Below the pieces are notes generated by a model. The model was not told the origin of the DNA, searched no databases, and saw nothing but the letters and a program-made list of their open reading frames with translations. Of a stretch of 24,228 nucleotides of DNA, positions 3,766 through 23,161 are shown piece after piece. How positions within the stretch are numbered: the stretch's first letter is position 1; each line of letters begins with the position of its first letter. This stretch comes from Octopus sinensis (Eukaryota): positions 1-24,228 of the forward strand of contig NW_021836485.1 in assembly GCF_006345805.1 (NCBI RefSeq), in the 5' to 3' direction. Position numbers and translations under genes: made by a program.

Positions 3766-3995
3766 CACACACACACACACACACACACAACACACACATA
3801 ATATACACATGTCTATACATGTATGCAAATATACACACGCACACATATATATATATATTTATACACATATACATATACTCTCATATATATGTATGTGTGT
3901 ATGTACGTGTGTCTGTATCTGTATAATGTATGTATGTACATGTGTGTGTGTATTTGTGTGCGTATGTGTATTTGTGTGTGTGTGTGTCTGTGTGT

Positions 3996-4052
<57 letters not shown>
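3766..4052. repeat. (CA)n/(TA)n/(TG)n compound microsatellite
   Basis: Direct reading. (TG)n resumes at 4611-4702 beyond the inserted element. Confidence 0.95.
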
Positions 4053-4054
4053 CA

Positions 4055-4244
4055 GGGGTGTAGCGAGCTTAAGGGGGCTCTGGTTAGAGGTAGTACCTTT
4101 GGGGTCTTGAAGCTGCACCTTGCCAGGGTTCGTCGTGTTGACGGGCATCACTGACCCTCATTCACCTCCTGATCTCTCACTTGATGGCTCTTAAGGCCAC
4201 ACTCCGGCACCCCACTTCAACTGGTGGGCTAAACCAAGTGAGAG
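4055..4244 (+). ncRNA. HDV-like self-cleaving ribozyme fold
   Basis: P1 GGGGTGT 4055-4061 / ACACTCC 4199-4205. P2 CTCTCACTTGAT 4174-4185 / ACCAAGTGAGAG 4233-4244 (11/12 paired). P3 GGC/GCC with 7-nt L3 TCTTAAG. P1.1 GG 4206-4207. P4 CCCAC/GTGGG. J4/2 CTAA with catalytic-position C4229. Confidence 0.75.
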
Positions 4245-4610
4245 GATGGTCTTAACACAGTACTCGTAGGCGAACGACTCCGGGTAATAGTTTCCAAAGT
4301 GTCCCCAGCTAGGGCGGGGGAACCTGCTCAGGTCAACGGACAAGTATTCGCGGCCAAGGCGTGTTTCAAGTAGCTGCATACGGTTGTGGTTAACAGTTTA
4401 GAGAGGAATGGGCGACGCTAGACTAACCTGCGTATGATACATTCATGATCATGACAATCAGACCAGAATCCATAATTGATCGGTCGTTGCCCGGATTGCC
4501 GATTCACAGAATGCAACAGAAGACCTAGGAAGAGTGCGAAATTCGGTTGCGACGACATCAACGAATATCCCAACGACCACACGGTCAAGGGATGGGAGGA
4601 GGAAGAAGAC
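4055..4610 (+). mobile_element. Short non-autonomous retroelement: ribozyme-headed 5' part plus RTE-like 3' tail
   Basis: GC-rich island interrupting (TG)n. 5' end coincides with ribozyme G1. 3' part encodes remnant NATEDLGRVRNSVATTSTNIP and ends CCCAACGACCACACGGTCAAGGGATGGGAGGAGGAAGAAG, like RTE 3' termini. Confidence 0.6.
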
Positions 4611-4643
4611 GTGTGTGTGTGTGTGTATGTGTGTGTGTGTGTG

Positions 4644-4678
<35 letters not shown>

Positions 4679-4915
4679 TATGTGTGTGTGTGTGTGTGTG
4701 TGTTCTAGCAGCCACGTGATTCTCGATCCGATACCACTATGTAGCTACTTATTTTTACATTTTAACTGTCCTTTCTTCTCTTTTTCCCAACAGAACGAAG
4801 CCATTTGTTTGTTTGTTTTTTTATTCCTCTAAGTTGAGAGCTTCTACGTTGTCGTCACTTGACCTGTTGAAAGTAGCAGGCAATGTTCCCTTAAATTACA
4901 TCCCTAAATTACAAA

Positions 4916-12795: not shown

Positions 12796-13218
12796 TTAAT
12801 ATGGGGTAGGACCGCCTTTAGCAGTAATTACAAAGTTTCCAAAGGAATTTTTGTCCATTCTTCACCTAAAACAGTCTGCAGTTCTTGTAGTGATGATGGT
12901 TGAGGATATCGACTCCTTACTTGTTTTTCTAAAATGTACCATAAATGTTCAATAATACTGAGATCTGGCGGATTGTGGTGGCCAGATAAGATGTTCAACT
13001 TCACTAGAATGTTCCTCGTGCCATTCACTAACAACTTTGGCTGTGTGAATTGATGCATTATCATCCTGAAAGATTATGTTTCCCTCCGGAAACTGTTTCG
13101 CAACCATAGGATGAATTTGATCAGATAAAATGCTTAAATAGTCTTGACTATTAATTCTGCCATGAAGGGGAACCATTGGGACGGCGGATTTCCAAGATAT
13201 AGCCTCCCTGATCATCAC
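12796..13218 (-). pseudogene. Tc1-type DDE transposase relic (C-terminal catalytic domain)
   Basis: FQDDNASIHTA...WPPQS/PDLSIIEHLW...LQELQTVLGEEWTKIP with a 1-nt frameshift near 12970, then after a deletion VITAKGGPTPY*. Confidence 0.92.
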
Positions 13219-13369
13219 ACACGTACCTATATATTATATGCGTGTGAGTGAAAGAGAGATAGAGAGGGAGAGAGATAGATAGATAAAGTGTGCGTGTATT
13301 CAAAATTGAAGGATCAGAGCATCTAAAATCCGTAATCAGTCTCTCTTCAGGTGATATACCCTCCTCTTC

Positions 13370-14486: not shown

Positions 14487-15123
14487 AGGTACAAGTGTGG
14501 CTGCGTGTAAAGAAGTTTGCTTCCTAATCGCATTGTTCTGGGTTCAGTCTCCCTGTGTGGCACCTTGGGCAAATGTCTTTTATTATAGCCTGGGGTCGAC
14601 CAAAGCCCTGTGAGTAGATTTGGTAGACGTCGTGTGTGTGTGTGTGGTGGAGTGTCTTTACGTTTGTTATTTCTTTACTGCCCACAAGGGGCTACACACA
14701 AAGGGGACAAACAAGGACAGACAAACGGATTAAGTAGATTATATCGATCCCAGTGTGTAACTGGTACTTATTTTATCGACCTCCGAAAGGATGAAAGGCA
14801 AAGTCGACCTCGGCGGAATTTGTACTCAGAACATAACGGCAGACGAAATACCGCTAAGCATTTCGCCCGGCGTGCTTACGATTCTGCCAGCTCACCGCCT
14901 TCCTTACGTTTGTGTTTGTCCTCCACCCGCGTTTGACAACTGCTAAGCTACGGTGTGTTTACGTGCCCATGGCATAGCGGTTCGGTAAAAGATCCGATAG
15001 AATAAGTACCAGGCTTAACAAAAAGAAAAGTCCTGGAGTCGATTTATTTGATTAAAAATTCCTGAAAGCCCTGCACCAGCACGGCCGAAGTCTAATGACT
15101 GAAACTAGTAAAAGAATAAAAGA
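14487..15123 (+). mobile_element. Family B SINE interrupted by a nested SINE
   Basis: GGCACCTTGGGCAAATGTC, GGATTTGGTAGACG-like block, resumes at 14914 with TTGACAAC...GACTGAAACTAGTAAAAG. Confidence 0.88.
14668..14900 (-). mobile_element. Full-length family A SINE with target-site duplication
   Basis: Head AGGCGGTGAGCTGGCAGAATCG. TSD TCTTTACGTTTGT 14655-14667 / TCCTTACGTTTGT 14901-14913. Confidence 0.9.
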
Positions 15124-15417: not shown

Positions 15418-15729
15418 TCTGCTAATCTGCTGTCGTCTGCTAATCTGCTGTCGTCTGCTAATCTGCTGTCGTCTGCTATTCTGCTGCCGTCTGCCAATCT
15501 ACTGTTGTCTGCTAATCTGCTGTCGTCTGCTAATCTGCTGTCGTCTGCTAATCTGCTGACATCTGCTAATCTGCTGTCGTCTGCTAATCTGCTGTCGTCT
15601 GCCAATCTGCTGTCGTCTGCTAATCTGCTGTCGTCTGCCAATCTGCTTTCGTCTGCTAATCTGCTGTCGTCTGCTAATCTGCTGTCGTCTGCTAATCTGC
15701 TGTCGTCTGCCAATCTGCTGTCGTCTGCT
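15418..15729. repeat. 18-bp minisatellite (TCTGCTAATCTGCTGTCG) x17
   Basis: 17 units counted from the ADDSRL translation, with few variants and no indels. Confidence 0.95.
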
Positions 15730-19319: not shown

Positions 19320-20165
19320 TCATACTCTCCACTCCAATTAGGAAGAGGAAAAAGGACGAAACCCATAAACTGACCACAGTCTGTTTACTCTATATCAAAA
19401 GCCTCTCGGAAAAGGTACAAAAAATATGCGGTCCAAATGGCATCAGGGATGTATTCAGGAGTAATACAATACATCTCAAATATCTCCTCCAGGTAAAAAC
19501 CACCCATAGAAGAGAATAAGACCAAAAACTGCGTGTACTCCATCCCATGCAGTTGCGGTAGGGTGTCTCCCCCTTAAAATAAGAGTAAAGGAACATCATA
19601 AAGCTGTGATACGAGGGGATATTGAAAAATCGGGTACAGCCAATCATGTATGGAGAAACGGAGACCATCTTCCCCTGTGGGATGAAGTTAAAATAATAGA
19701 CAGAGAACGCCACTGGAAAATACGAAAATTAAAAGAGGCAGCATATATGCTAGGTCACAATAACCTCCTAAGTAGATCTAGTGCAGATATGAATGTAATA
19801 TGGGAATTAAGAAAAGATAAAATATTAGGTTTATAAGCTCAAAAATTAACTCTATAATTGCCCACGGTCTTATAGTGTAGTGGATAAGAGCGTGGGCTAC
19901 AGACCCTCGGGTTCTGAATTCAATCTCAAGCAGGAACTTGAGAAATAAAATCAACAAAAAATAACATCAGCAAAAAAGAATACCTTAGGAATGAGAACAG
20001 AGTACCCCATTGGTCAAATAAAGGGTTGGGTTCGAAATTCCACCAGAACACCTGATGAAGGCTGGAAAGTACATCAGCCGAAACATTGTGGCAGCAACAA
20101 ACAATGTGAGGGCACCTATCCGTCCATTGAAAATTATATACTATTTCTAATATTTCGTGAGTATG
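19320..20165 (+). mobile_element. 5'-truncated Penelope-like element: GIY-YIG relic plus pseudo-LTR region
   Basis: Frameshifted LYIKSLSEKVQKIC..., NCVYSIPCSCG, LKIRVKEHHKAVIRGDIEKSGTANHVW...WDEVKIIDRERHWKIRKLKEA, followed by a hammerhead motif. Confidence 0.88.
20049..20090 (+). ncRNA. Minimal hammerhead ribozyme, probably inactivated
   Basis: cac CUGAUGA a ggcug-loop-cagcc GAAA ca uu gug. Stem II is perfect, but the stem III pair is broken (AACAUU instead of palindromic AACGUU). Confidence 0.65.
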
Positions 20166-21832: not shown

Positions 21833-21935
21833 TAGGGTTAGGTTTAGGGTTAGTGTTAGGGTTAGGTGTTAGGGTTAGGGTTAGGGTTAGGGCTAGGGTT
21901 AGGGGTTAGGGGTTAGGGTTAGGGTTAGGGTTATA

Positions 21936-21968
<33 letters not shown>

Positions 21969-22531
21969 ATAGGGTTTAGGGTTAGGGTTAGGGTTAGGGT
22001 TAGAGGGTTAGGGTTAGGGTTAGGGTTAGGGATTAGGGTTGAATGTTTAGGGTTTAGGGTTAGGGTTAGGGGTTAGGGTTAGGGTTAGTGTTAGGGTTAG
22101 GGGTAAGGGTTAGGTTTAGGGTTTGGGTTAGTGTTAGGGTTTAGGGTTTGGGTTAGTGTTAGGGTTTAGGGCTTTTGTTAGGGATAGGGTTCGGGTTAAA
22201 GGTTAGGGTTAGTGTTAGGGTTAGGGTTAGGGTTAGGGTTAGGTTTAGGTTTAGGGTTAGGATTAGGGCTAGGGTTTAGGGTTAGGGTTCATGGTTAGGG
22301 TTAGGGTTAGCGTTAGGGTTAGGGTTAGGGTTAGGGGTTAGGGTTAGGTTTGTGTTAGGGTTGTGTTAGGGTTAGGGTTAGATTTAGGGGTTAGGGTTTT
22401 TGTTAGAGTTAGTGGTTAGGGTTAGGTTTAGGGTTTGGGTTAGTGTTAGGGTTTAGGGTTTTTGTTAGGGTTAGGGTTCGGGTTAGAGGTTATGGTTAGT
22501 GTTATGGTTAGTGTTAGGGTTAGGGTTAGGG

Positions 22532-22572
<41 letters not shown>

Positions 22573-22997
22573 GGTTAGGGTATAGGGTTTAAGGTTAGGG
22601 TTAGGGTTAGGGTTAGAGGGTTAGGTTAGGGTTAGAGGGTTAGGGTTAGGGTAAGGGTTAGAGTTAGAGTTAGGGATTAGGGTTGAATGTCTAGGGTTTA
22701 GGGTTAGGGTTAGGGTTAGGGGTTAGGGTTAGGGTTAGTGTTAGGGTTAGGGATTAGGGTTAGGTTTAGGGTTTGGGTTAGTGTTAGGGTTTAGGGTTTT
22801 TGTTAGGGTTAGGGTTCGAGTTAGAGGTTAGGGTTAGTGTTAGGGTTAGGGTTAGGGTTAGGTTTAGTGTTAGGGTTGTGTTAGGGTTAGGGGTTAGGGT
22901 TAGGTTTAGGGTTTAGGTTAGTGTTAGGGTTTAGGGTTTTTGTTAGGTTTAGGGTTCGAGTTAGAGGTTAGGGTTAGTGTTAGGGTTAGGGTTAGGG
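21833..22997 (+). repeat. Degenerate interstitial telomeric array (TTAGGG)n, about 1.16 kb
   Basis: TTAGGG units with TTAGTG, TTTAGGG, TTAGGGG and TTCGGG variants. Non-telomeric DNA on both sides. Confidence 0.95.
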
Positions 22998-23161
22998 TAT
23001 TACTGTATTGAACAATTACAAGCCGGTGAGTAATATGTAATTTCTAATTATCCATATCGTCACTTTTGAGTTTCCTCGTCGACACGCCACGATGCGACAG
23101 TATAGGCATGTTGTGTTTGTTTCCTTTTGTGGCCTGGTCTTTTCTCGAATGTCTATAGGCT

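Follow-up and report, generated by a model that had tools for sequence, protein, structure and literature searches.

Structure of the element and its surroundings

The window, the whole stretch of 24,228 nt of Octopus sinensis DNA analysed here, contains a 555-base non-repetitive island (4055-4609, + strand) between an upstream (TG)n array (3941-4047, with 5 extra nt extending the segment to 4054) and a downstream (GT)n array (4611-4703) that is the target of this copy only. The island is a whole copy of a short, internally deleted RTE derivative, and differs from the family column majority by 16.6%. From 5′ to 3′ on the + strand it comprises a predicted HDV-like ribozyme (4055-4245; based on sequence, a descriptor with shuffles, column majorities and the 5′ boundary), a UTR-like middle (4246-4444) with homology, over its final ~65 nt, to the pre-ORF stretch of related RTE-type elements, a remnant of RTE-type ORF sequence covering the first ~18 codons (4445-4498; by comparison with the N-terminal 50 aa of proteins P0094 and P0066), an internal-deletion junction (4496-4499) at which a further 30 nt are absent as a subfamily trait, the RTE-type ORF's 3′ end, common to long RT-bearing copies (4499-4595), and a decayed purine tail (4596-4609; the family tail is (GGAA)n).

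An earlier note, made from the letters of the window, had described a ~555-bp element with no RT/EN ORF and no pol III A/B boxes, flanked by (TG)n on both sides and ending in a GGA/GAA tail. The longest stop-free stretches were 45 aa (+ strand) and 68 aa (- strand), the A/B-box motif was absent on either strand of the element, and a tRNA gene search of the element found none; the description held on these points, as it did for the two arrays. The trimer tail was not borne out, the tail of the window copy being a decayed (GGAA)n. A SINE derived from tRNA, 5S or 7SL RNA (including Ceph-SINE and the OR/OK SINEs) was rejected, since the pol III head with A and B boxes is absent.

Other features were observed in the window. 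An interstitial degenerate (TTAGGG)n array of ~188 units (21833-22998) lies 1.2 kb from the contig end, and an 18-bp minisatellite (15418-15729; 17.3 copies, 92% matches) is open in more than one frame (several). Broken frames at 12828-13233 (- strand) seem to resemble a Tc1/mariner transposase catalytic region, and a 108-aa frame at 19510-19836 (+ strand) seems to resemble the GIY-YIG-like end of Penelope-like elements. An inverted pair of another dispersed repeat (1357-1477 and 14781-14901) is 79% complementary.

Family size, age and shared junction

A search of the own genome gave at least 43 matches, those other than self showing 66-76% identity (40 of 106 candidates scored). The pooled loci (L001-L057, L118-L164 and L168-L197) corresponded to 79 distinct places. 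Head, junction and 3′ end were present at 50 of these, and junction and 3′ end without head at 19; the rest were 2 long RTE copies and 8 partial ones. After one near-identical duplicate pair and one insertion-split copy were taken into account, ~75 distinct copies of a ~575-nt family remained. A 19-nt motif gave 11 exact matches (reversed control, 0), all of which lay, by their coordinates, at known places, 8 of them already in the own-genome search. This suggests a low-copy family, of the order of 100 copies or fewer, an estimate that is low because the searches share words. Three sequencing runs of unknown kind contained 0.27-0.54 of the words searched; no RNA run was among those listed.

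The 40 copies with at least 400 columns differed from the column majority by 18.6% on average (range 13.7-24.4%); the family is old. It also appears to be dead. The only near-identical pairs were L018/L024 and L047/L048, which share flanks and are apparently duplicated segments.

The earlier note had predicted many copies with the same internal junction, and had taken single-copy status, or 5′ and 3′ halves that never co-occur, as evidence against its proposal. Besides the ~75 copies, all 30 loci picked via the pre-junction segment crossed the junction. The 3′ 130 nt alone selected 27 loci: 24 (including the query) have the pre-junction sequence, two are long copies of the RTE, and one is doubtful. 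Of four further pre-junction matches, two reached the 3′ end, and the others ended at profile positions 399 and 401. The family was amplified as a single unit, its junction being fixed, as predicted.

The window copy belongs to a small subfamily with L004, L005 and L030. These four have the extra 30-nt deletion at the junction, and a diagnostic base is present in 4/4 members vs 1/50 other copies.

Several individual features of the copies were noted. The CpG content of copies L001-L147 was roughly bimodal (mostly 0-1.5 vs 2.5-6.4 per 100 nt), as expected from mosaic DNA methylation, and the window copy (29 CpG) falls in the CpG-retaining class. L165 (G000 C14) is a copy split by about 4.4 kb, L186 has a 5′ duplication, and in the L014/L166 pair the J1/2 segment of L014 is tandemly repeated.

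Long RT-bearing copies share the 3′ end

Two of the loci, L043 and L056, run upstream into a broken RT-type frame. When RTE-only DNA lying upstream of the shared part served as query, 21 loci came back; in 20 of them the 3′ part of the element is present and begins at profile positions 419-426. The majorities of the long (n = 17) and short (n = 51) copies showed 3 differences in the 131 columns before the tail. Divergence of the copies from their own majority was 18.9% (17 long) and 18.2% (51 short), indicating that both sets were active in the same period. Tails were GATA-type in 12/17 long copies and GAAG in 47/51 short copies.

An RTE-like 3′ terminus, also proposed in the note, was confirmed by the match of the 3′ part to the C-terminal end of the RTE-type ORF. 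Copies other than that in the window matched protein C-termini with E values around 1e-9. For the window copy, tblastn found no match to the C-termini, and its shortened 3′ translation was not significant against four proteins (score reached by 109-932 of 1000 shuffles).

One of six partner fragments matched Pfam RVT_1 (E 1.7e-4, below the curated cut-off), and a partner fragment retrieved single-ORF EN+RT proteins of 1019-1053 aa. The partner is probably RTE-type, a label taken from this layout of its relatives and from RTE motifs. Searching G000 at the protein level yielded 28 decayed RT fragments, 2 of them with the shared 3′ end (one weak, E 0.007); a first homolog search gave no match.

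The long partner copies are 5′-truncated, and the longest one followed extends ~1.3 kb into the RT region. An upstream walk along the partner gave 4 matches, then only the query itself, and ended inside the RT region. No ribozyme head was found in the six extended partner regions, and 5′-directed searches returned only short or interrupted copies and no long copy with head or UTR. The autonomous RTE expected to share both ends of the element was thus found in regard to the 3′ end (20/21 loci; 3/131 columns); for the 5′ end, no head-bearing partner was found.

Predicted HDV-like ribozyme head

The earlier note had placed a ribozyme at the head of the element. On the + strand, 4055-4245 can form a nested double pseudoknot with P1, P1.1, P2, P3 and P4 in the correct order (P1, P2, P3, L3, P3, P1, GG, P4, CUAA, P2). 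The predicted helices are P1 (4055-4061/4199-4205), P2 (4173-4185/4233-4245, with one A-C mismatch), P3 (4186-4188/4196-4198), P1.1 (4190-4191/4206-4207) and P4 (4211-4216/4223-4228). The predicted L3 is at 4189-4195, the putative catalytic C at 4229, and the predicted cut 5′ of 4055. J1/2 is long (~100 nt) and includes a ~10-nt insertion private to the window copy.

This long J1/2, together with the UTR, leaves space for a promoter. An element of the same anatomy could have a head acting also, or mainly, as an internal polymerase II promoter, like Pr77 of L1Tc/NARTc, which is reported to be both promoter and ribozyme (PMC3185411), and it would then not depend on host transcripts. None of the analyses here indicates a promoter, however, and ribozyme-bearing RTE elements lack a promoter of their own according to a 2019 review in NAR (PMC6765202). 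We regard a promoter head as conceivable, though somewhat doubtful.

Two ribozyme descriptors were used, a strict one and a relaxed one, the latter devised with the sequence already in view. The relaxed one gave a single match in the 24-kb window (both strands) and none in 5000 dinucleotide shuffles; the strict one gave no match in the window copy. Of 32 head-bearing copies, only the window copy passed the relaxed descriptor. The aligned majority string failed both descriptors because of its P1 columns. At P1 position 3, 14 of 26 copies have A and 12 have G, mostly facing C; a mismatch in P1 may thus have been present in one master. Mismatches in P1 and P2 also occur among R2 ribozymes (PMC3774820).

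All five helices can be built from the column majorities, in which L3 has U-C-C...G and J4/2 has C-U-A-A. Conservation in L3 was 33/38 (U), 30/38 (C), 32/38 (C) and 31/37 (G), and the J4/2 C is kept in 29/40 copies. The named pairs except P1 were paired in 79.5% of cells, vs 35-47% with slid partners. The residues expected at the active site (U and G of L3, P1.1, C and A of J4/2) are thus present in the family majorities, and the window copy is without the L3 G: position 4194 is A in the window copy and G in 31 of the 37. At 4191 the window copy has T, vs C in 32/38 copies. In a Nasonia R2 ribozyme, such a G-to-A change in L3 was reported to abolish cleavage, and in HDV not fully (Eickbush 2013, PMC3774820). 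The predicted ribozyme of the window copy is therefore probably impaired in cleavage.

Covariation was not above shuffles (312/500 shuffles reached the score), and RNAalifold gave no consensus pairs on the family. Both outcomes would be expected of neutrally decaying copies, for which covariation is uninformative, but they leave the fold unproven. Rfam gave no match in the window at the gathering score, and at E ≤ 10 only two chance matches driven by (GT)n. MFE folding gave P2, P3 and P4, with a z of -0.91 that is not significant.

The 5′ boundary of the family provided independent support for the ribozyme. The first P1 base (G in 16/25) marks the onset of conservation in 25 full-length copies, and the sequence upstream of this base is A/T-rich and variable. 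The predicted HDV-like fold therefore starts exactly where family homology starts (4055), in agreement with the proposed ribozyme head. The missing Rfam match, the lack of covariation and the P1 and P2 mismatches would suit a pseudoknot that is vestigial or due to chance and never cut in the family; yet such a fold is unlikely, given that no shuffle of 5000 matched the descriptor, that the majorities form five helices with the L3 and J4/2 residues, and that the family boundary coincides with the predicted cut.

Origin of the 5′ part

The UTR-like middle described in the note proved to be of RTE origin over about 4380-4498, as indicated by a DNA profile and by N-terminal protein alignments. Window positions 4386-4430 aligned with the first 15 aa of P0094, and 4386-4430 plus 4442-4501 aligned with the N-termini (50 aa) of P0094 and P0066, each best score being reached by 0/1000 shuffles. 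Alignments of the window copy with the N-termini of P0106 and P0096 were not significant (84 and 65 of 1000 shuffles). Profile positions 306-435 matched 4 of 7 metagenome loci (E 1.8e-17 to 6.6e-8), and these matches end at about the family junction.

The RTE-type relative L199 continues through TAACA into its ORF, and the partner copies have TAACA at the start of the shared part; together these point to a 5-nt microhomology at the junction. L199 itself is not the parent but a relative. Long copies bearing the head were not found, and the head's parentage is therefore inferred. The ribozyme model gave no match on the 7 metagenome loci. Positions 130-215 of L199 contain a TCCTCGT loop, a GCTAA that follows a stem, and pairing like that of P2; this 5′ region is possibly an HDV-like ribozyme of its own. 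Model R1 gave it no score.

With RTE homology evident only from profile position 306 onward, and no partner carrying the head, the head (about 4055-4380) could have come from another non-LTR family and been fused to RTE parts. Because 5′ UTRs diverge fast between families, however, a missing match in distant relatives is expected. Hybrid elements of this sort are known among the R2/R1 SIDEs (PMC3414825), but RTE families themselves are reported to bear 5′ ribozymes (PMC5786205, PMC6765202) and the alignment shows no second junction. We consider a hybrid origin improbable.

Integration marks and target site

Starts of the copies occur at many positions, i.e., 5′ truncations are staggered, and the 5′ part is inverted in both L027 and L141. 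In an anchored test for target site duplications (TSDs), from which the window copy, L013 and L018 were left out, 7/23 copies scored 6 or more vs 9.5% of mismatched pairs, a weak excess (permutation p = 0.0095). An unanchored test (p = 0.0003) was set aside because it is inflated by the microsatellite of the window. For RTE elements, TSDs of 7-15 bp have been reported (PMC6007223). The truncations, 5′ inversions, repeat tails and weak TSD excess fit target-primed reverse transcription.

The enrichment of (TG)n flanks anticipated in the note was not found. Repeats of (TG)5 or longer were present on both sides at 1 of the 79 places (the window copy), on the 5′ side at 2 and on the 3′ side at 3, with a background of 23/1136 windows; the microsatellite site is therefore particular to the window copy. 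In this copy 4032-4049 equals 4611-4628, a possible 18-nt TSD that is not diagnostic within a microsatellite. A currently active family targeting (TG)n, to which the flanks and possible TSD of the window copy might point, is already contradicted by these counts, by the 13.7-24.4% divergence of the copies and by near-identical pairs that look like duplicated segments, and we give it almost no credence.

Discussion

Very probably, the element in the window represents, in decayed form, a low-copy family in which the 5′ and 3′ ends of an RTE-type retrotransposon were joined, which likely spread by means of the endonuclease and reverse transcriptase of its parent, and whose 5′ end is set by a predicted HDV-like ribozyme. 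The anatomy on which this explanation builds was observed directly: a family with a fixed junction, a 3′ end common to long and short copies of equal age, an RTE origin of the sequence before the junction, and a boundary at the first P1 base. Cleavage by the head, promoter status and mobilisation in trans are inferred.

The family most likely arose as follows. In one RTE-type RNA or copy, nearly the whole ORF would have been lost in a single deletion or template jump across the TAACA microhomology, and the head, the UTR and the 3′ recognition end kept. RNA polymerase II would have produced the transcripts, either from an internal promoter or by read-through, and the ribozyme would have trimmed upstream RNA at G1. 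The partner protein would then have bound the shared 3′ end and integrated the copies in trans by target-primed reverse transcription, and the short and long families would later have died and decayed neutrally. More tentatively, we suggest that the family consists of promoterless, ribozyme-headed RTE mini-elements that cut themselves out of host transcripts, with ~50 head-intact copies and a parent present only as 5′-truncated copies. It could then be an RTE counterpart of the R2 SIDEs, with junction, partner and cut site mapped, and absent from the cephalopod papers searched.

Bipartite, ORF-less LINEs derived from RTE, Ingi, Vingi as well as R2 are on record (Kojima 2018, PMC5786205). They usually retain the true 5′ end, which is tied to self-cleaving ribozymes in that account. 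The octopus family joins the bipartite non-autonomous RTE elements among them, a kind already known from other animals. RTE-N2_Lch, RTE-N1_ATr, RTESINE2, WALLSI3 and Bov-A likewise consist of RTE 5′ and 3′ ends joined by internal deletion, and the bipartite RTE LINEs of that paper likewise have no ORF and no small-RNA head. The octopus family is longer (~575 nt vs 195-286 nt in the RTE-N families listed) and, unlike them, keeps short coding remnants on either side of the junction. The cephalopod elements described in the same paper are Ceph-SINEs with only an internal piece of RTE UTR, unlike the octopus family.

A 5′ ribozyme combined with a 3′ end recognised by a partner protein is also the arrangement of R2 SIDEs and R2/R1 hybrid SIDEs (Eickbush and Eickbush 2012, PMC3414825). 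The R2 SIDEs spread by target-primed reverse transcription, as proposed here; however, SIDEs are site-specific for rDNA and use R2 or R1 proteins, whereas the octopus family is dispersed and RTE-type, with a ribozyme that is predicted. NARTc/L1Tc of Trypanosoma cruzi (PMC3185411) provides a dispersed non-autonomous partner with a 5′ HDV-like ribozyme. It belongs to another clade, its ribozyme was reported to cleave and its 77-nt head is also a promoter; the octopus head is a prediction and has a J1/2 of ~100 nt. RTE elements are listed among carriers of HDV-like ribozymes (review PMC6765202; Ruminski 2011 via citing papers). RTE-2_OV of Octopus vulgaris (Petrosino 2022, PMC9115989) is an octopus LINE of the RTE clade, as is the partner by its label, and is described as having UTRs of ~600 nt and a 1109-aa ORF. 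The partner is probably a different family because its ORF ends at the tail and its copies are decayed, a distinction by description and not by sequence.

The note knew of no description in cephalopods. For the family this stands, within the literature searched; supplements, repeat libraries, Dfam and Repbase may already contain it. It does not stand for the kind of element, which is in print (Kojima 2018, PMC5786205). By term look-up, the text covered of two octopus repeat papers (PMC13282606, PMC9115989) does not mention ribozymes, that of PMC8967140 mentions non-autonomous elements once, and the only ribozyme mentioned in that of PMC4758252 is L1Tc.

The octopus family leaves knowledge of the mechanism unchanged, and provides a clean worked example of how a SINE-like element can arise with no pol III promoter. 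Kojima 2018 (PMC5786205) did not settle whether 5′ ribozymes account for the predominance of RTE, Ingi and R2 among bipartite elements, a question for which the predicted ribozyme heads could serve as one test case. The short copies may also retain the parental 5′ end, no full-length parent having been found.
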